Shown: positions 4,280 through 16,667, numbered from the stretch's first letter. The stretch is 64,000 bases of DNA from Dehalococcoidia bacterium (GCA_965248065.1 OZ252088.1:2709202-2773201), one strand, 5' to 3'. A program made the numbers and translations. Notes: a model not told the origin generated them from the letters alone.

Positions 4280-5221
4280 TCATCCCCGCGAAAGCGGGGA
4301 AAGGCCGGTGATCTCGGCGAGGCGCTCGGCGTGCTCTTCCAGGTCGAACACCGGATTGAGCAGCACCTCGTCCACGCCCATCTCCGACCACTCTTCAAGT
4401 AGCTCTTGTATCTTGGACGCGCTGCCCCAGACCGCTGCCCGGTCGGCGTTGTCGGCATTGCCGTAGTAGTAGCCGTACCACTCCCGCAGCCGCCGGTGGG
4501 CGCGCGCCTCGTCGTCGTCGACCGCCAGGTACAGGCGTTTCGATATGGGGAAGGTCGCGGGGTCGCGGTCCGCCTCGGCCAGCAGCGATTGCACCAGCTC
4601 CACCTTGCGCGGGAAATCGTCGAGCGCCGAACTCCCCGCGCCCATCCAGCCGTCGGCGATGCGGACGGCCCGCTTGAGGGCTTGGTCCACGTTCGCGCCG
4701 AACCAGATGGGCGGGTGCGGCTTCTGCAGAGGCTTCGGCTCGATGTTCACGCCGTCGAGGTTGTGGAAGGTCCCGGAGTAATGCGCAGGCGTCTGGGTCC
4801 AGAGCGCCCGGAGGACTTCGACCTGCTCGGTGAAACGGCTCACCCGACGCTCGGGGCTGACGCCGTACATCGGAAGCTCGTCGGCGTTGTTTCCGAGGCC
4901 AACGCCCAGGATGAGACGCCCGCCGCTCATCTGGTCGACGTCCGCCATGAGCTTGGCCAGGTGTATGGGGTTGTGCCTCGGCAGCACGAGCACGGAAACG
5001 CCCAGCCGCGCCCTGGACGTCTGTCCCGCGATGTAGGCGAGGAAGGTCGTCGGGTGAAGCACGTTGGGCCGCCCCGTCACGCGCTCTTGGGTCCAGAGGC
5101 TGGAATACCCCAGCGTCTCGGCCCTCCGGACGAACCGGCCCACGAATTCCATGTCCACCTTGCCGTCGGGAAATATGTGCGGCGAGGCGATTCCTATCTT
5201 CATCCCATCTGCTATCGACAT
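4280..5221 (-). CDS. Luciferase-like (LLM) flavin/F420-dependent oxidoreductase
   Basis: AETLGYSSLWTQE, RLILGVGLG, PKPLQKPHPPIWFG, AVRIADGW. The stop lies inside a REP palindrome (4279-4300). Confidence 0.9.
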   Translation of the reverse strand: MSIADGMKIGIASPHIFPDGKVDMEFVGRFVRRAETLGYSSLWTQERVTGRPNVLHPTTFLAYIAGQTSRARLGVSVLVLPRHNPIHLAKLMADVDQMSGGRLILGVGLGNNADELPMYGVSPERRVSRFTEQVEVLRALWTQTPAHYSGTFHNLDGVNIEPKPLQKPHPPIWFGANVDQALKRAVRIADGWMGAGSSALDDFPRKVELVQSLLAEADRDPATFPISKRLYLAVDDDEARAHRRLREWYGYYYGNADNADRAAVWGSASKIQELLEEWSEMGVDEVLLNPVFDLEEHAERLAEITGLSPLSRG

Positions 5222-5292
5222 TGCTCTTTCCTCTCAGGGGAGGAGTCATGGTAGGGGATGGGCGGCGCCGGGGAAAGTGGGCTCCTCCCCCC

Positions 5293-5533
5293 CTAGAGTG
5301 TCAGTTTGAGCAAAAAATTCAAAATCTGACCAAAACCTCCGGCATAGGCGTGACGGGATGAGTTCGGGGTCAGCTGAGGCGCGTTGAAGCCCCTCCTTGA
5401 CGGGCGATGTAGACTGACCCTTGCCTAGGGAAGCCTCGCCATGCTCAAAGTAGCTGGGGCGCGGACTCGACGCGCCCCCTTGTGAACATCGCTGGCACAG
5501 GGCTTCCCTAGGCAAGGAGTCCAAACGCTCTAG
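5293..5533. mobile_element. Possible MITE/IS remnant bounded by CTAG, with an internal 17-bp perfect inverted repeat
   Basis: CTAG at 5293 and 5530, weak inverted end similarity (CTAGAGTGT / CTAGAGCGT). Perfect IR CCTTGCCTAGGGAAGCC at 5419-5435 and 5501-5517. Confidence 0.3.
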
Positions 5534-5551
5534 CGTCACAAGGGGGTTTCC

Positions 5552-6517
5552 ATGAATAAGGCCAGCGTGTTTGCCCTGCTCGTTGCCACGCTCCTCATAG
5601 TCGCCTGTGGGCAGCCTACTCCGACTCCGACTGCTACTCCCATGCCAACGCTTACTCCTTCGCCAACGCCTGAACCAACGCCTACCCCTACAGCTACTCC
5701 TATCTCGATGCCTACTCCGACTCCGACTGCTACTCCCATGCCAACGCTTACTCCCTCGCCAACCGCTACATCTACACCTACTCCCTCGCCGACGCCTGAA
5801 CCTACGCCTACACCGACACCAAACATTGGACTATGGACGACTTTCGACACGGCTGACCCAGTAACAGAGGATCGCACTCATGGCATCAAACTCTTAGGAG
5901 ATACGCCTGGGCAATCGTTGACCATCCAATGCCAAACATCTGATAGCTCAGTTTATCCTTGGTCGTTTGACCTGATAGTTGAGTTTGGAACTCAACTGAC
6001 GCCAGGAGGAGTTCCATATGCCGGAAGCAGGTGGTTTATTTCCACAATACAAAACGTATACAGAGTCCAAACAGAAAGCAATCCATCGAGTATCAATTCA
6101 TGGGATGCTTTGCCGTCCGGTTCCGAACTTGTTTGGTCGAGAGTCAACTCCCGAATATATCAATCGTACAACGATTATCCTAGCGCAGCAGACTTTAGCA
6201 ATCCCACTCCAGAAGAACAAGCCGCTATAGATGCTTACGTGCGAGGAGCACAAGAGGCACAAAACAAAGACAAAGCAGCTCTGCGTGAGTTCGTGAAGCG
6301 ATTGACCAATGCCGATATGTTTGCTATACGCGCGTTCGGAGGTCAACGAATTGAAAGCAGCAGGTTCGAGTTCCCAGAAGGTTCTTTTGGAGAGACATTA
6401 GCTCAACTTGTCGTGCCCGAGCACCCGCACCTTGCTGTTTTCGATATCCGAGGTCTAGATGTCGCGATACAGCCCATATATGAATCGTGTTGGGAATATC
6501 CTGAGCCAACAGCTTGA
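5552..6517 (+). CDS. Lipoprotein with Pro/Thr-rich linker, unknown function
   Basis: Signal peptide ending LIVA-C (lipobox), ~65 aa PT-repeat with an internal duplication, globular C-terminus, lower GC than the backbone. Confidence 0.8.
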
Positions 6518-6547
6518 CAGCCGAAGAAATAGGAGGAGGCAAGGTCG

Positions 6548-6787
6548 ATGACAGAAACTCCGAGAGACCCCATCGACGATGTCCGATTCGCCACGCAAAG
6601 CATCATAAGAGTTGATCTTCTTCGTCAGAAGATTCATCTGGTGTTTCAAACACGACAACGGAACCAATCGGAAGATTCTCAATCTCAGCCATTGTCGGTA
6701 GAGTTGCCGGCGGAGGATGCAGTGGCCCTTGCCAAAGCAATATTGTCGGATGCTGAGACTCTCCTAGATATAGACGTACAACCATGA
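6548..6787 (+). CDS. Small hypothetical protein
   Basis: SD GGAGGAGG upstream, 79 aa, directly follows the lipoprotein gene. Confidence 0.6.
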   Translation: MTETPRDPIDDVRFATQSIIRVDLLRQKIHLVFQTRQRNQSEDSQSQPLSVELPAEDAVALAKAILSDAETLLDIDVQP

Positions 6788-6850
6788 TGTTCTACCCCTC
6801 CTTGTCTCTAAGTAGACACGCGAGGTAGAAATGACAAGGATTGCCCTCCC

Positions 6851-7183
6851 CTACGGCGGGATCGAGCGGGCAAGCTGCTCCAGGGTAAACGGCTCTCCGG
6901 TCAAGCCAGCGGCCATCGCGGGCGTTACGTCCAGCCCGTTCTTGCGGAGGGTCGAGTGCGGGCGAATGTAGTTGTAGTAGACCGTATGCAAGGCGACCGC
7001 ATGACGGTGCTTCAATAGGCTCTTGGAGAAGGAGTCGGCCTGGCGGGTATAGCGCTTCACCGACATGCGTAGGGTCTTGTTGTATCGTTCGATGTAATTC
7101 GTGTGCATGATGGACGTGTCGGGGTCGCCTATGACGATTTCCTTCCTGATGCCGAACAAGCCGCCAGGAGAGCCGCCCGGCAC
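6851..7183 (-). pseudogene. IS1-family transposase C-terminal remnant
   Basis: GDPDTSIMHTNYIERYNKTLRMSVKRYTR...SFSK...YYNYIRPHSTL...TPAMAAGL. 5' part is missing and truncated next to REP sequence. Confidence 0.75.
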
Positions 7184-7426
7184 TCAATCCGTCATTGCCT
7201 CGAAAATAGGGCTCCGCAGAGGTGGCTTTAGCCATCCTCTACCCCCCTCCCGTCATTCCCGCGAAGGCGGGAACCTAGGATGCCCCCCGCGCCCCACGTA
7301 CCTGTAGGGGCGTCCCTTGTGGGCGCCCCCGCCCAATAGGTTCGCCGTCCCCAACGCTCCCGTCCCCTCCTTGCCAAGGAGGGGCTAGGGGTGGTTCCGT
7401 CTGCGCGGGGGAGGACACCCACCCCC

Positions 7427-7456
7427 TTGACGCCATAGACAATCCTATGTCATAAT
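7427..7456 (+). promoter_or_regulatory. Putative sigma70 promoter upstream of terL
   Basis: TTGACG (7427) - 18 nt - CATAAT (7451), with TG at 7448-7449 (extended -10 position). Confidence 0.5.
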
Positions 7457-7504
7457 AACATCACACGCCAACATACACCCAACACACCGAACCCCCGAGC
7501 GGAC

Positions 7505-7542
7505 GAGCCGCCGGAGCCACAGCAAGGCCCGGCGGCTCTTTT
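7505..7542 (+). terminator. Terminator/attenuator-like hairpin in the terL leader
   Basis: GAGCCGCCGG (7505-7514) pairs with CCGGCGGCTC (7529-7538), followed by TTTT. Confidence 0.5.
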
Positions 7543-7578
7543 CGTTCCGCCGGGCGCCGCCCACGAAAGGAGGACCCC

Positions 7579-9028
7579 ATCAAACGCTCACGCCCCAAGG
7601 ACACCCCCATCGACCTCTCACCATACCGCGACGACCCCCTCGGCTTCGTCAAAGACATCCTCTCCGGCTCCGGCACGCCCTACGCCAAGCAGGAAGAGCT
7701 CCTCCGAGCCCTCGTCAGCGACAAACGCCGCGTCTCCGTCGTCGGATGCAACTCCTCCGGCAAGGACTGGGCCGCCGCTCGCGCCATCCTCTGGTGGATC
7801 GAGACACGCCCCAAAGCCAAGGTCATCGTCACCGCCCCCACCCTCCGCCAGGTCAAGGAGATCGTCTGGGAGGAGCTCCGCGCCGCCCACGCCGCCGCCA
7901 AACACCGCCTCTCCGGTTCCGTCCGCGTCGGCGAGTACCGCGCCGGCCCCGACCGCGTCGGCCTCTGCATCACCTCCAACAACCAGCACAATCTTCAGGG
8001 CTTCCACTCCCCGGAGCTCCTCGTCATCGTCACCGAGGCCCAGGGCGTCAAGCAGCCCTACTTCGAGGCCCTCAAACGCCTCAACCCCAAGAAGATGCTC
8101 CTCCTCGGCAACCCCCTCTCTCTCACCGGCGAGTTCTACGACTCCCACCACGGCAAGAGCCCCCTCTACGAGCGCGTCTCCATCTCCGCCTACGACTCCC
8201 CCAACGTCCAGGAGGGCCGCCTCGACGCCCTCCCCGGCCTCGTCACCCCCGAGGACGTGGAGGAGCGCCGCCAGGAGTGGGGCCCGGACTCCCCCCTCTA
8301 CATCGCCTCGATCCTCGGCGAGTTCCCCGAGGCCCTCGAAGACTCCCTCACCTCCCGCCCCCACGTGGACGCCGCCGTCGAGCGCTGGCGCCGCGAGTCC
8401 CCTTCCGTCATTCCCGCCTGCGGGAGGGGACGCGCGAGCGCAGCAAAGCGCGGGGGAGGCGGCCCCCCTCATCCCGCCCAGCGACGGCCCCCACCTCAAC
8501 CAGCCCTGGCGCATGGGCGTGGACGTCGCCCGGTTCGGCAACGACAAATCCGTCATCTGCCTCCGCCGCGGCGACCGCGTCGAGCGCCTCATCGCCTTCG
8601 AACGCAAGGACACCATGCGCCTCGCCGACGAGGTACGCGAGATCGCCGAGACCCTGCGCGTCCCCGCCGTCTTCGTCGACGAAACCGGCGTCGGCGGAGG
8701 CGTGGTCGACCGTCTGAAGCAGCTCCGCGTCCCCGTCATCGGCGTCGAGGGCGGCGGCAAAGCCTACCGCCCCGCCCAGTTCGCCGACATGCGGGCCGAG
8801 ACGTTCTGGGAGGTGGCGCGCCGCCTCCGCGAGGGCCAGATGTCCCTCCCGCCCGACGACGAGCTGGCAGGCCAGCTCCTGGCCCAGCGCTACGACATCT
8901 CGTCGGCGGGGCGCATCCACCTCGAAAGCAAGGCGACGCTCCGCCGTCACGGCGTCCCCTCCCCCGACAAAGCCGACGCCCTAGCCCTCGCCTTCATGGA
9001 GCCCCCCAACATGAACGTCTGGTTCTAA
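7579..9028 (+). CDS. Solitary phage terminase large subunit (ATPase + RNase H-like nuclease); ATC start; 2-nt frameshift at ~8421
   Basis: The frame open from 7459 encodes DPLGFVKDIL...YAKQEELL...GCNSSGKD...IVTAPTLRQVK...VIVTEAQG...LLGNP...ILGEFP. The second frame encodes GVDVARFGND, FVDETGVGGGVVDRL and SPDKADALALAF. SD AAAGGAGG at 7566-7573 precedes ATC 7579. Confidence 0.85.
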
Positions 9029-9096
9029 CCATGCCCCGCCATTCCGTCCCGGTATCCTGCTGCGCTCCCTGCGCCCGGTGGGTGTACAATCGCGCG

Positions 9097-11124
9097 GTGG
9101 CAAGGCTCTACCGCTACTCCCGGTGGGACGGCTCGCAGGAGCCGTTCGAAGCCGATGCCGGAGCGCTCCTCGACGCCATGGCCGAGGACGTTATCGACCA
9201 CGGCGATGTTCGCCGCGCTCTTCGCGACCTCCTCCGGCGCGGCGCCAACGGAGACGACACCCGTCTTCCCGGACTCCAAGACCTTCTCGAACGGCTGGGC
9301 TCGCGCCGCAGGGAGACCCTCGACCGGTACGACATGGACTCGGTCATGCGCGATCTCAAGGAGCGTCTCGACGACGTGCTCCAGACCGAGCGCGCGGGCA
9401 CGGACCGGCGCCTCGGCGAGATCGAACAGGACCTCGCCCGCATGAGCGGCGAGGAGGCGGAGCAGGCCGGCAAGCTGCGCGACCTCTTCCGGCAGCGGGC
9501 CGACCGCAATCGCGAACGTCTCGATCAGCTCCCCCCGAGCACCGCGGGCGCTCTGCGCGAGCTCCAAGATTTCGACTTCATCGACCCCGAGGCCCAGCGG
9601 AAGTTCCAAGAGCTGATGGACGAGCTCCGCAAGGAGATGCTCGGCTCCGTCGCCTCCGAGATGCGGCAGCAGATAGAGAGCATGGACCCGGAGCAGATGG
9701 CCCAGGCGCGCGAGATGCTGCGCGACCTGAACCAGATGATGCGGGACAAGCTCGCCGGTCTGGAGCCCGACTTCGAGGGCTTCATGGACAAGTGGGGGGC
9801 CATGTTCGGCGACGACCCGCCGCGCAGCTTCGACGAGCTCATGGAGATGCTCGCGCGCCAGATGGGGCAGATGCAGTCCCTGCTCGACAGCATGTCGCCG
9901 GAGCAGCGGCGCGAGCTGTTCGAGGCGATGAACTCCGCCATGGACGGCGACACCGCCGGCGAGCTCGCCGAGCTCGCCGCGAACCTCGGCCAGCTGCTCC
10001 CGTTCGACGACTTCTCGGAGCAGTACCCGTTCCTGGGCGAGGAGAACCTGACCCTGGAACAGGCGATGAACGTCATGGGCGAGATGCAGTCGATGGACGA
10101 CCTCGAAGCGCAGATCCAGCAGGCGATGCGCCGGGGCGACCTCGACGAGCTCGACGCCGACATGCTCGAAACCATCCTCGGGGAGGAGGCCCGCCAAGAC
10201 CTGGACCGGCTCGCGGAGATGGCGAAGCGGCTGGAAGAGGCGGGCTATCTGCGGCGGAACGGCGACCGCTTGGAGCTGACCCCGGCCGGCGTGCGGAAGA
10301 TCGGCCAGAAGGCGCTGCGCGACCTGTTCGGCGACCTCCGCAAGGGCCGCGCGGGCGACCACGAGCTAACGCTGAGGGGCTCCGGCGGCGAGCACACGGA
10401 CGAGACCAAGCCCTACGAGTTCGGCGATCCGCTGGAGATTCACCTGCACCGCACCATCATGAACGCCATCGAGCGTCAAGGCATCGGGACGCCGGTCAAG
10501 GTCGGCATCCAGGACTTCGAGGTCAGACGCACCGAGCACATGGTGCAAGCCGCCACCGTTCTGCTCATCGACCAGAGCCGGTCGATGGGGCTGTTCGGCT
10601 CGTGGGGGGCGGCCAAGCGGGTGGCGCTGGCGTTGGAGGCGCTGATACGCGGCAAGTTCCCCCGCGACCGCTTCTGGATGCTCGGCTTCTCCGACTACGC
10701 CGTCCCCATCAGCGCCGACGACCTCCCGACGCTCTCGTGGAACGCGTGGGTGTCGGGCACGAACATGCAGCACGCCTTCGCCATGTCGCGCCGTCTGCTC
10801 GCCCCCTACAAGGACTGCTCCAAGCAGATCCTGATGATCACGGACGGCGAGCCCACGGCCCACCTGGAAGGGACGCGGGCCTACTTCAACTATCCCCCGA
10901 CGCACCGCACCATCCAGGAGACCCTGCGGGAGGTCCGCCGCTGCACCGCCGAGGGCATCACCATCAACACCTTCATGCTGGAGACGAGCTACTACCTCCT
11001 CGATTTCATCGACCACGTAACCCGGATCAACAACGGCCGGGCGCTATATACGTCGCCGTCCAATCTGGGGCAGTACGTGCTGGTGGACTATCTGAATAAT
11101 CGGCGTCGGCGGGTGGTGAGTTAG
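9097..11124 (+). CDS. VWA-domain protein (YRYSRWDGSQ N-terminus; mycobacterial Rv0959-like)
   Basis: GTG 9097, coiled-coil N-region, MIDAS DQSRSMG, GTN and ITDGEPTAH motifs. Confidence 0.87.
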   Translation: MARLYRYSRWDGSQEPFEADAGALLDAMAEDVIDHGDVRRALRDLLRRGANGDDTRLPGLQDLLERLGSRRRETLDRYDMDSVMRDLKERLDDVLQTERAGTDRRLGEIEQDLARMSGEEAEQAGKLRDLFRQRADRNRERLDQLPPSTAGALRELQDFDFIDPEAQRKFQELMDELRKEMLGSVASEMRQQIESMDPEQMAQAREMLRDLNQMMRDKLAGLEPDFEGFMDKWGAMFGDDPPRSFDELMEMLARQMGQMQSLLDSMSPEQRRELFEAMNSAMDGDTAGELAELAANLGQLLPFDDFSEQYPFLGEENLTLEQAMNVMGEMQSMDDLEAQIQQAMRRGDLDELDADMLETILGEEARQDLDRLAEMAKRLEEAGYLRRNGDRLELTPAGVRKIGQKALRDLFGDLRKGRAGDHELTLRGSGGEHTDETKPYEFGDPLEIHLHRTIMNAIERQGIGTPVKVGIQDFEVRRTEHMVQAATVLLIDQSRSMGLFGSWGAAKRVALALEALIRGKFPRDRFWMLGFSDYAVPISADDLPTLSWNAWVSGTNMQHAFAMSRRLLAPYKDCSKQILMITDGEPTAHLEGTRAYFNYPPTHRTIQETLREVRRCTAEGITINTFMLETSYYLLDFIDHVTRINNGRALYTSPSNLGQYVLVDYLNNRRRRVVS

Positions 11125-11161
11125 GGTTGTGCGGGCCTGCAACTTGGTTTAGTATGTAGTC

Positions 11162-11413
11162 ATGTCCACGACCACACTCAATATCCACGAGGCGAAGACG
11201 CACCTCTCCGAGCATCTTGCCAAGCTGAAAGAGGGCGACCGGATCGTCCTCTGCCGCCGCAACCACCCCATCGCGGAGATTCTGCCCATCCCAGAGCGCG
11301 ACTCCACCCCTCGCCCCTTTGGCCTCGGCAAGGGACTAGCGGAGATCCCCGACTCGTTCTTCGACCCGCTTCCCGACGATCTGCTCGACCTCTTCGAAGG
11401 CAAAGGCGAGTAG
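11162..11413 (+). CDS. Phd/YefM-family (VapB) antitoxin
   Basis: LNIHEAKTHLSEHL N-terminus, RPFGLGKG...FFDPLP C-terminus, directly upstream of a PIN toxin. Confidence 0.88.
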   Translation: MSTTTLNIHEAKTHLSEHLAKLKEGDRIVLCRRNHPIAEILPIPERDSTPRPFGLGKGLAEIPDSFFDPLPDDLLDLFEGKGE

Positions 11414-11426
11414 GGCGGTCGGGAGC

Positions 11427-11809
11427 GTGCGGCTGCTGCTCGACACCTCTGCGTTCATCTGGCTGGCGGAAGGCGAGAGGCTGAGCGAGTCGGCCCGCGA
11501 CCTGATCTCGGACGCCTCCAACGACGTCTTCCTGAGCGCCGTGTCCGCATGGGAGATATCCATCAAACACGGCCTCGGACGGCTCGTCCTGCATTTGCCC
11601 CCGGACGAGTATGTCCCGCAGCAGCGGCGGCTTCACCGAGTGGAGCCGCTGCCCGTCACCGAGGCCGCCGCGTTGCAGGTAGGCAAGCTGCCGGGTCTTC
11701 ACCGCGACCCGTTCGACCGGCTCATCGTGGCGCAAGCCATCGTCGAGGGCTGACCGTGGTGACTTCCGACCGCCTGATTAGCATGTACCCTGTACCGGTC
11801 GTGTGGTGA
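11427..11809 (+). pseudogene. VapC PIN-domain toxin, 1-nt frameshift at ~11749 (possibly sequencing error)
   Basis: LLLDTSAFIW...SAVSAWEI...HRDPFDRLIVAQAIVEG. The expected tail LTVVTSDRLISMYPVPVVW* continues in another frame after a G-run one base short. Confidence 0.85.
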
Positions 11810-15649: not shown

Positions 15650-16667
15650 TCAGCGGCGCAAGCACGTTCTCGACCTCGACGACTTTTCGCGCGAGGAGAT
15701 TCTCGGCGTGCTCGACCTGGCCGAGGCGATGCGCGAGCTGCTGGGGCGCAGCATCAAGAAGGCGCCCTCGCTGCGGGGGAAGGTCGTCATCACCGTGTTC
15801 CTCGAACCGAGCACGCGGACGCGGGTCTCGTTCGAGCAGGCGGGGAAGATGCTCAGCGCAGACGTCATCAACGTCAGCGGGTCGGGCAGCAGCGCGGAGA
15901 AGGGCGAGTCGCTCCTCAACACGGCGCTGACGCTCCAGGCGATGCGCGCGGACCTCATCGTCATCCGCAGCCCGCACTCGGGCGCGCCCTACTTCCTCGC
16001 CAGGAACCTCAACCGCGCAGGCGTCGTCAATGCGGGCGACGGCCGCCACGCCCACCCGACGCAGGCGCTCCTCGACCTGATGACGATGCGGCATCACCTG
16101 GGCGACCTCGCCGGCAAGAAGGTCGTGCTCGTGGGCGACTCGCTGCACAGCCGCGTCGCGCGGTCGGACATCTTCGGACTGACCGCGATGGGCGCTTCGG
16201 TCGTGCTCTCCGGGCCTCCGACGATGATCCCGCTCGACCTGCTCAAGGGCAATGGTTCCCGCCTTCGCGGGGATGACGGAGAGGGAGGGCTGCGAGGTTC
16301 CCGCCTTCGCGGGAATGACGGAGGAGCCCCTAGCCTCACGGTCGAGCCCGACCTTGACGCCGCTATAGAGGACGCCGACGCGGTTATCGCGCTCCGCATC
16401 CAGAAGGAACGGCAGGAGGCCGGGATGCTCCCGAGTATGCGCGAGTACACGCGCCGCTGGATGATTTCGGAGGCGAGGCTCCGCCGGGCCAAGCCGGGGG
16501 CGCTGCTCATGCACCCCGGCCCGATGAACGAGGGCCTCGAAATCGCGTCCTCGCTGGCGCACGGGCCCGGCGCGCAGATCGAGGAGCAGGTCACGAACGG
16601 CGTGGCGATTCGGATGGCGTTGCTTTATCAGCTACTTACCGGCGCGCAAGAAGAGGCCACGGAGTGA
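15612..16667 (+). CDS. pyrB: Aspartate carbamoyltransferase catalytic subunit with in-frame REP insertion
   Basis: FLEPSTRTRVSFE, NAGDGRHAHPTQALLD, VGDSLHSRVARS, MHPGPMN. Confidence 0.95.
   Translation: MNVPLQGGGGQTNQRRKHVLDLDDFSREEILGVLDLAEAMRELLGRSIKKAPSLRGKVVITVFLEPSTRTRVSFEQAGKMLSADVINVSGSGSSAEKGESLLNTALTLQAMRADLIVIRSPHSGAPYFLARNLNRAGVVNAGDGRHAHPTQALLDLMTMRHHLGDLAGKKVVLVGDSLHSRVARSDIFGLTAMGASVVLSGPPTMIPLDLLKGNGSRLRGDDGEGGLRGSRLRGNDGGAPSLTVEPDLDAAIEDADAVIALRIQKERQEAGMLPSMREYTRRWMISEARLRRAKPGALLMHPGPMNEGLEIASSLAHGPGAQIEEQVTNGVAIRMALLYQLLTGAQEEATE
16254..16320. repeat. Two GTCATTCCCGCG-type REP palindromes inside pyrB
   Basis: GGTTCCCGCCTTCGCGGGGATGACG and GGTTCCCGCCTTCGCGGGAATGACG, translated as GSRLRGDDG...GSRLRGNDG. 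Confidence 0.85.

Follow-up and report, generated by a model that had tools for sequence, protein, structure and literature searches.

A 64,000-nt stretch of DNA from a Dehalococcoidia bacterium (GCA_965248065.1 OZ252088.1:2709202-2773201), hereafter called the window and used as the frame for all coordinates, contains a gene that is, by profile and fold comparison, a homologue of the large terminase subunit (TerL). The ATP site of its predicted product carries two reciprocal replacements: the Ser/Thr that canonically follows the P-loop Lys in Walker A is an Asp, and the Asp that canonically ends the Walker B strand is a Thr. The best overall explanation, which we consider likely to be correct, is that the gene belongs to a large TerL clade in which the acid of the Mg-ATP site has been relocated and the ATPase has stayed active, the copy in the window being a dispersed and frameshifted orphan.

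The terminase gene and its ATP site

The reading frame of the ATPase half opens at 7459 and contains both Walker motifs. Its translation bears out the two residues named in an earlier note on this DNA, the Walker A Asp in GCNSSGKD and the Walker B Thr in LLVIVTE, and the place that the note gave to Walker B agrees with the strand seen in a structural model of a relative (P0047) and with a profile alignment to Sf6 gp2. The features of the gene are the following:

7579-8402, plus strand: N-terminal ASCE P-loop ATPase domain of the TerL homologue, identified by phrog_2, phrog_5902 and the P0047 model (ratio of nonsynonymous to synonymous substitution rates, dN/dS, 0.16 against the orthologue L004)
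7744-7767, plus strand: Walker A, GCNSSGKD, with Lys at 7762-7764 and Asp at 7765-7767 in the canonical Ser/Thr position
7822-7842, plus strand: strand-2 motif, VIVTAPT; a hydrophobic residue followed by T-G/A-P-T in swapped sequences, T-T-A-P-T in canonical ones
8017-8037, plus strand: Walker B, LLVIVTE, with Thr at 8032-8034 in the canonical Asp position and the catalytic Glu retained at 8035-8037
8041-8043, plus strand: Gln, three residues after the Walker B Thr; His/Gln in swapped sequences, a small residue in canonical ones
8098-8115, plus strand: LLLGNP, the strand after Walker B, at the motif III/coupling-motif position, with G165 and N166 (P0047 numbering) invariant
8403-8470, plus strand: hypervariable interdomain linker, with a degenerate palindrome resembling repetitive extragenic palindromic (REP) sequences at 8407-8425 and a run of six C at 8463-8468
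8468-9028, plus strand: C-terminal RNase H-like nuclease domain, in the frame of the open reading frame 8513-9028, with the stop codon at 9026-9028
8516-8539, 8672-8701 and 8960-8983, plus strand: acidic motifs of the nuclease, GVDVARFG, FVDETGVGGG and SPDKADAL, conserved in the family, whose profile aligns with E217 and Sf6

Both halves of the gene match the PHROG family phrog_2, annotated as "terminase large subunit": the ATPase half with E = 4.9e-24, next to a match to the unnamed phrog_5902 (E = 1.8e-25), and the nuclease half (8513-9028) with E = 2.2e-10. The structure was modelled with AlphaFold2 on P0047, a full-length relative of 455 amino acids that is 61% identical. In this model (mean pLDDT 90.5, pTM 0.83), the P-loop lies between a strand (39-44) and a helix (50-64), LLVIVT forms the strand 134-140 and Glu141 follows directly. 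The top PDB matches of the model in Foldseek are all terminases, led by Sf6 gp2 (E = 4.6e-19), with further matches to T4 gp17, D6E, HK97, the E217 nuclease and the P74-26 ATPase. When the family profile is compared with solved structures, GKD-W aligns with GKS-W of Sf6 gp2, and the terminase nuclease domains of E217 (6.5e-17) and Sf6 (8.1e-16) are matched; a PDB search with the single sequence gives marginal nuclease matches only. Standard domain collections recognize little of this. The ATPase half scores 14.9 bits (E = 0.021) against Pfam Terminase_6N (PF03237), below the gathering threshold of 22 bits, full-length P0047 has no Pfam match at E <= 1e-3, and a precomputed Pfam domain is absent for nearly all homologues. 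The PADLOC defence and NCBIfam profiles give chance-level matches only (E >= 0.0035).

The pairing of an ASCE ATPase with an RNase H-like nuclease fold, as expected of a TerL, is found in the P0047 model and in the phrog_2 matches of both halves, and the acidic metal-binding residues of the nuclease are present (GVDVARFG, FVDETG, SPDKADAL). The departures lie in the ATP site: the Walker A consensus G-x4-G-K-[S/T] keeps its Lys and has Asp for the hydroxyl residue, while the Walker B consensus hhhh-D with a catalytic Glu keeps the Glu and has Thr for the Asp. A head-morphogenesis module is missing around the window copy and is found on viral contigs and at 8 of 82 genomic loci.

Both motifs align with those of relatives without gaps or ambiguity, since the surrounding motifs VVGxNxxGK-x-W and QGFHSPxLLVxV-x-EA are common to the relatives. 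Across 29 sequences with a mean column identity of 33%, the post-Lys Asp is invariant and the Walker B Thr nearly so; judged by these alignments, the Asp/Thr pattern is not due to chance. Two other sites separate swapped from canonical sequences almost perfectly. Three residues after the Walker B Thr (8041-8043), swapped sequences have His (68 of 89) or Gln (20 of 89) and canonical ones S/A/P/G, and at query position 88 in strand 2 (7828-7830), the swapped set has V/I/L where 43 of 53 canonical sequences have T. For these two changes, coupling to the swap and co-inheritance with it are indistinguishable in a clade that is mostly monophyletic.

Covariation, descent and probable activity of the swapped pair

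Among the 120 best homologues (49-93% identity), 112 have the combination Asp/Thr/Glu, four have Gly/Asp/Glu and one has Asp/Thr/Asp, the remainder lacking the N-terminus. A more diverse search, in which 15 billion proteins were clustered at 50% identity and each cluster was represented by a single sequence, returned 6,390 matches; the best 150 of these comprise 83 with GKD and [T/S]E, 48 with GK[S/T] and DE, eight with GKG and DE, three with GKD and DE, and none with GK[S/T] and [T/S]E. A second search started from the outlier P0250 contributed 84 more relatives, in which the association is equally perfect. In the combined set of 237 aligned relatives, GKD occurs with [T/S]E in 99 and GK[S/T] with [D/E]E in 125, the rare mixed forms GKG/DE (six) and GKD/DE (four) always retain one carboxylate, and the combination of GK[S/T] with [T/S]E, which would have a carboxylate at neither position, is not seen once (0/237). 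Canonical relatives include some with Glu in the Walker B Asp position (TEE, SEE), such as phage C72C1. The covariation of GKD with hhhhTE among homologues, by which the earlier note proposed to judge its reading, is thus strongly positive. As far as aligned sequences can tell, it shows that the true constraint on the pair is the presence of one carboxylate.

After exclusion of the two motif columns, neighbour-joining trees were calculated from 257-265 columns of the ATPase and bootstrapped with 100 replicates on a 78-taxon subset. Of the 100 bootstrap trees, 72 recover the main swapped clade as monophyletic. P0250 and P0266, both GKD/TE and 51-58% identical to each other, form a clade in 100/100, and their nearest neighbours are all canonical. 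They group with the main swapped clade, without canonical sequences, in just 3/100, and therefore point to a second origin of the swap, so that the full exchange would have arisen independently at least twice. P0347, found with the main clade in 11/100, probably represents a third origin; P0339, placed there in 42/100, may belong to the main clade or to a further origin. A change in the opposite direction is suggested by P0103 and P0112 (GKG/DE), which form a clade with L134 and L159 (GKD/DE) in 100/100 that is nested among swapped sequences, likewise in 100/100. In this group, Asp appears to have come back at Walker B, after which the Walker A Asp would have been lost in one branch, giving one apparent reversal inside the swapped clade by way of the GKD/DE form. 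The GKD/DE sequences P0187 and P0196 sit in a separate GKG/DE clade (100/100), and the double-acid state links the other observed states. The codons AGC (Ser), GGC (Gly) and GAC (Asp) are one step apart, which fits GKG as a stepping stone. One other candidate reversal, the canonical P0262 located in the swapped clade of the first tree, was rejected, its nearest neighbours being canonical and its position a long-branch misplacement.

These trees also bear on the idea that the two changes are uncoupled and were simply fixed once in an ancestor and inherited together. Most swapped sequences do form one clade, with 72% bootstrap monophyly, and additional clade-specific substitutions accompany the swap. 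However, P0250/P0266 and probably P0347 gained both changes among canonical neighbours, the return of the Walker B Asp was followed by loss of the Walker A Asp inside the swapped clade (GKD/DE to GKG/DE), and GK[S/T] with [T/S]E is found nowhere in the 237 relatives. Simple co-inheritance is considered highly improbable. The compensatory coevolution that the earlier note had suggested for this T/D pair is instead supported by the covariation, the two or more origins and the nested reversal.

In the mechanism that we propose for the relocated acid, the terminal Asp of Walker B becomes Thr/Ser and the post-Lys Ser/Thr of Walker A becomes Asp. The carboxylate of the Walker A Asp would be a direct inner-sphere ligand of Mg2+ in place of the Ser/Thr hydroxyl, and the hydroxyl of the Walker B Thr would hydrogen-bond to this Asp or to a Mg-bound water, as the Asp normally does. 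One carboxylate, one hydroxyl, the P-loop Lys and the catalytic Glu would all be retained, and it is therefore proposed that the enzyme stays an active packaging ATPase. The likely route leads from GKS/DE through GKG/DE and GKD/DE to GKD/TE, could be reversed along the same steps and would never pass through a carboxylate-free form. Rescue of the site by another new acid, as in the GTPase MglA, was considered and rejected: the sole other clade-specific Asp (8254) is far from the motifs in the sequence. A cause outside catalysis would be escape from Avs-type STAND immune sensors that recognize the terminase ATPase site. Avs2 and related sensors are reported to detect the large terminase, which is circumstantial, and the swap arose more than once; the strict retention of one carboxylate, however, points to a catalytic constraint, and immune escape as the driving force seems a very remote prospect.

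Viral sequences indicate that the swapped enzymes work. A scan of IMG/VR with a pattern containing GKD gave 155 confirmed loci, of which 80 were retrieved; all 80 have TE at Walker B and an intact reading frame of 405-529 amino acids, and a portal gene is present at 62 to 63 of them. On the viral contig L076 (32.7 kb), TerL stands in a gene row, preceded by a small-terminase-like helix-turn-helix gene and followed by the genes for the portal, the maturation protease and the major capsid protein. Without an active TerL ATPase, a tailed phage is unable to package its DNA. It follows from this established dependence that the swapped enzymes of these viruses would have to be functional. Purifying selection is visible in the cellular lineage as well: between the window and its syntenic orthologue L004 (ENA contig_13, with a neighbourhood ~91% identical in nucleotides to the window), the ATPase has a dN/dS of 0.16 and the nuclease one of 0.13, with dS at ~0.26.

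Intein-like insertions of ~300-400 amino acids give a further indication. They occur in the swapped P0136, P0149, P0174, P0190 and P0203 and in the canonical P0244, open with Cys and close with His-Asn or Gly-Asn. Their insertion sites are the P-loop (between GCNS and SGKD), a point just before the Walker B strand (between GFH and S.NLL) and the SPD motif of the nuclease. Inteins typically occupy such sites in functionally critical motifs. Among the carriers, a Pfam LAGLIDADG match is on record for P0244 only.

From this evidence we infer that the swapped TerLs have ATPase activity. The contrary view, that the swapped clade is a pseudo-ATPase kept as a nuclease, a scaffold or an ATP-binding switch, could appeal to other P-loop enzymes, in which a single mutation of either residue kills activity (Kozlova et al. 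2022, PMC9599734), and to the genomic copies, most of which are orphans without packaging partners within 6 kb. On viral contigs, however, a complete head module has the swapped TerL as its terminase. The Lys, the strand motifs and the catalytic Glu show no variation, and the lack of any relative without a carboxylate at both positions (0/237) is not expected of a dead site. A pseudo-ATPase is for these reasons very unlikely. "Not random decay", as the earlier note put it, is upheld by the intact viral genes in full packaging modules, by the dN/dS of 0.13-0.16 and by the inteins in the Walker motifs; the interpretation as a coevolved, non-canonical but probably working ATPase subfamily is supported by every sequence-level test made.

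Several points weigh against the relocated-acid explanation. Most swapped sequences form one clade, and the raw counts are therefore for the most part a product of common descent; the neighbour-joining trees give about three to five independent events. The nearest cultured phages (30-35% identity), namely Arthrobacter Ottawa and Amigo, Sinorhizobium phiM5, Enterococcus phiEf11, C72C1 and a Parageobacillus phage, are all canonical, so that no laboratory phage with a swapped site is known. Among genomic copies, both domains are in a single reading frame in 72 of 81, and the remaining nine are broken. The window copy itself has no canonical start codon and is frameshifted. Because it is an orphan with these two defects, the second a matter of one base, its own activity is less certain than that of the family.

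Orphan copies in Dehalococcoidia and the window gene

A scan of one genome per GTDB species gave 211 confirmed loci. The best 80 of these 211 (L091-L170) all come from Dehalococcoidia, SAR202 or Chloroflexota metagenome-assembled genomes (MAGs), with up to 10 diverged paralogues per MAG, and a portal gene stands beside TerL at only 8 of 82 genomic loci. The copies of the window type (n=11: window 7427-9028, L004, L111-L115, L118, L119, L122 and L168) form a 1.6-kb unit with 83-92% nucleotide identity, which lies within at least eight unrelated chromosomal flanks, four copies being in one MAG. Homology among 10-11 of these copies begins at the -35 hexamer and does not extend past the stop codon. 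No terminal repeats are visible among them, and the unit does not look like an insertion sequence or transposon; the TerL homologue is its only reading frame, and it encodes no transposase. A comparable multiplication is seen on the Dehalococcoidia chromosome OY282355.1, with seven GKD/DE TerL copies of 85-91% mutual identity (L134, L136, L138, L140-L143). This variant, also represented by L159, has a C-terminal extension with REP insertions and is the nearest relative of the GKG/DE group.

In the flanks of the 80 genomic loci, no constant partner gene was found for the window type. What recurs in these flanks is either a paralogue of a metabolic enzyme (amidohydrolase, oxidoreductase, amidase) or an antisense reading frame. 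A conserved helix-turn-helix protein of ~171 amino acids is encoded ~2.5 kb upstream of TerL in ten loci of another subtype, GANGSGKDW (L131, L135, L139, L145, L147, L148, L152, L153, L156, L157), and may be a retained small-terminase-like partner. The 1.6-kb unit might be a self-dispersing element that moves by means of a terminase-derived, ATP-driven nuclease, or might have been taken over for a host function to which many diverged copies are an advantage; either is an unlikely proposition on the present sequences. If true, self-dispersal or host recruitment would be a previously undescribed fate of a terminase gene.

The surroundings of the terminase gene in the window are made up as follows:

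Upstream of the TerL gene: luciferase-like monooxygenase
5552-6517: Pro/Thr-rich predicted lipoprotein with repeats of PTPTPTATP and similar, no Pfam match
6851-7183, minus strand: IS1-like/rve-type transposase fragment of 110 amino acids, just upstream of the TerL unit
7427-7456, plus strand: promoter-like site TTGACG-18 nt-CATAAT with TG before the second hexamer, 10/12 matches against 0.1 expected in shuffles
7505-7538, plus strand: leader hairpin, GAGCCGCCGG / CCGGCGGCTC, then a T-run; -45.8 kcal/mol, z = -4.0
7568-7581, plus strand: ribosome-binding site AGGAGG (7568-7573), a 5-nt spacer and ATC (7579-7581), a probable non-canonical start
Downstream: VWA-domain protein, beginning 3 nt past the TerL stop codon

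The promoter-like arrangement TTGACR-N17/18-CATAAT is kept in most of 10 aligned copies, L168 being without the -35 stretch. Between this site and the ribosome-binding site lies the GC-rich hairpin of 10 bp, both arms of which are kept in all aligned copies around a variable loop. No Rfam family matches the leader, and the hairpin may be terminator- or attenuator-like. The frame of the ATPase half contains no ATG, GTG or TTG from the stop codons at 7453-7458 up to position 8095, which is past Walker B. The AAAGGAG core, five bases and ATC are found in 10/10 aligned copies, the full AGGAGG in 9/10, and in 4/10 the ATC is directly followed by DLSPYRDDPLGF. The best reading is that ATC is the probable start codon of the window gene. 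A canonical start upstream of Walker A is absent in 7 of the 11 window-type copies, and gene callers cut the proteins short at various internal codons.

The ATPase and nuclease halves of the window gene are in different frames, and one C fewer in the six-C run would join both domains in one frame, reading ...GGGGPLIPPSDGPHLNQPWRMGVDVARF. The extra C could be either a recent inactivation or a homopolymer error of sequencing or assembly. The linker of the L004 orthologue is ~160 bases longer. REP-like palindromes (GTCATTCCCGCG-N-GCGGGAA) are present at 7252-7275 and 8407-8425, and more of them near 16298, 37480, 46452, 47400, 50812, 55719, 55918 and 63035. In-frame insertions of them are found in the TerL linker of this gene and of relatives, and appear in the protein as VIPAQAGI or RHSRESGNP.

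Some differences between genomes were observed at this locus. At the position orthologous to the IS1-like fragment, L004 has a different pair of DDE transposases. In two other MAGs (L101, L102), compared with 5000-11800 of the window, the same neighbourhood, from the luciferase-like gene to the VWA gene, is 92-94% identical and holds a different TerL paralogue; this paralogue is 73-76% identical, has the opposite orientation and is placed elsewhere in the interval between the two flanking genes.

Whatever holds for the family, the window copy could be a dead prophage remnant. Its frame lacks ATG, GTG and TTG ahead of Walker A, its two domains are separated by a frameshift, an IS1-like transposase fragment lies just upstream, no portal, protease, capsid or small-terminase homologue is found within the 64-kb window, and nine of the 81 genomic copies are broken. 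However, the dN/dS of 0.13-0.16 against the syntenic orthologue indicates selection over most of the divergence, and intact copies also lack a canonical start while having the conserved ribosome-binding site and ATC. The frameshift itself is a single-base change in the six-C run of a non-conserved linker and could be an assembly error. A dead remnant is thus conceivable, although we regard it as somewhat doubtful. The window copy is better described as an orphan outside any phage, which evolved under purifying selection and was possibly broken recently.

Comparison with known systems and significance

Kozlova et al. (2022, PMC9599734) describe the Ser/Thr after the Walker A Lys and the Walker B Asp as the sole strictly conserved proton-carrying residues of all P-loop NTPases, and the two have been proposed to act universally as a catalytic proton relay. 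In the canonical P-loop, the Ser/Thr hydroxyl directly ligates Mg2+, and the Walker B Asp hydrogen-bonds to this hydroxyl and to a Mg-bound water (PMC9599734). The exceptions listed there are nucleotide monophosphate kinases, which have Gly after the Lys, torsinA and DnaC, which have Asn in this position, Glu at Walker B, and MglA (PMC9599734). For terminases, a 2026 review gives only the deviations of lambda, SPP1 and Sf6 (PMC13595956). In the P-loop and terminase papers that could be searched, no GKD Walker A, no swapped Walker residues in terminases and no SAR202 terminases were found.

Canonical terminases (Sf6 gp2, T4 gp17, HK97, D6E and P74-26, and those of the cultured phages phiEf11, phiM5, Ottawa and Amigo) have the same two-domain build as the swapped clade and share with it the P-loop Lys, the catalytic Glu, the acidic motifs of the nuclease and, on viral contigs, the portal, protease and capsid neighbours. 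They differ in having GK[S/T] with hhhh[D/E]E, whereas the swapped clade has GKD with hhhh[T/S]E. Sf6 gp2 and other terminases with Glu at Walker B deviate at the same position, but they retain an acid there as well as the Ser/Thr of Walker A. The post-Lys hydroxyl is likewise dispensable in nucleotide monophosphate kinases, which have Gly instead, and in torsinA and DnaC, which have Asn, and the GKG/DE branches look like the kinases in this respect. However, all three keep the Walker B Asp and have no post-Lys Asp, and the kinases transfer phosphate rather than hydrolyse ATP. The closest parallel is the MglA GTPase of Myxococcus xanthus, in which the Walker B Asp has naturally become Thr, an Asp elsewhere in the site rescues this change and function is kept (PMC9599734 supplement). 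In MglA, the rescuing Asp is on a neighbouring strand and the Walker A Ser/Thr is kept, whereas in the swapped TerL the Asp replaces the Walker A Ser/Thr. The swapped arrangement is nearest to MglA in its logic, yet it is a reciprocal exchange within the pair, and as such is new within the literature that could be searched.

Swapped terminases escape naming by Pfam and NCBIfam, are labelled hypothetical and are therefore missed when phages and prophages are annotated in Chloroflexota and marine viromes. Their multi-copy orphan state in SAR202 raises the separate question of the role of a lone terminase in a bacterial chromosome. The swapped family, the GKG/DE and GKD/DE intermediates and the canonical sisters (35-45% identity) together make up a natural set in which the role of each residue can be tested. 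They offer a natural test of the proposed Ser/Thr-Asp catalytic module, and an exchange of its two members would surprise P-loop specialists.

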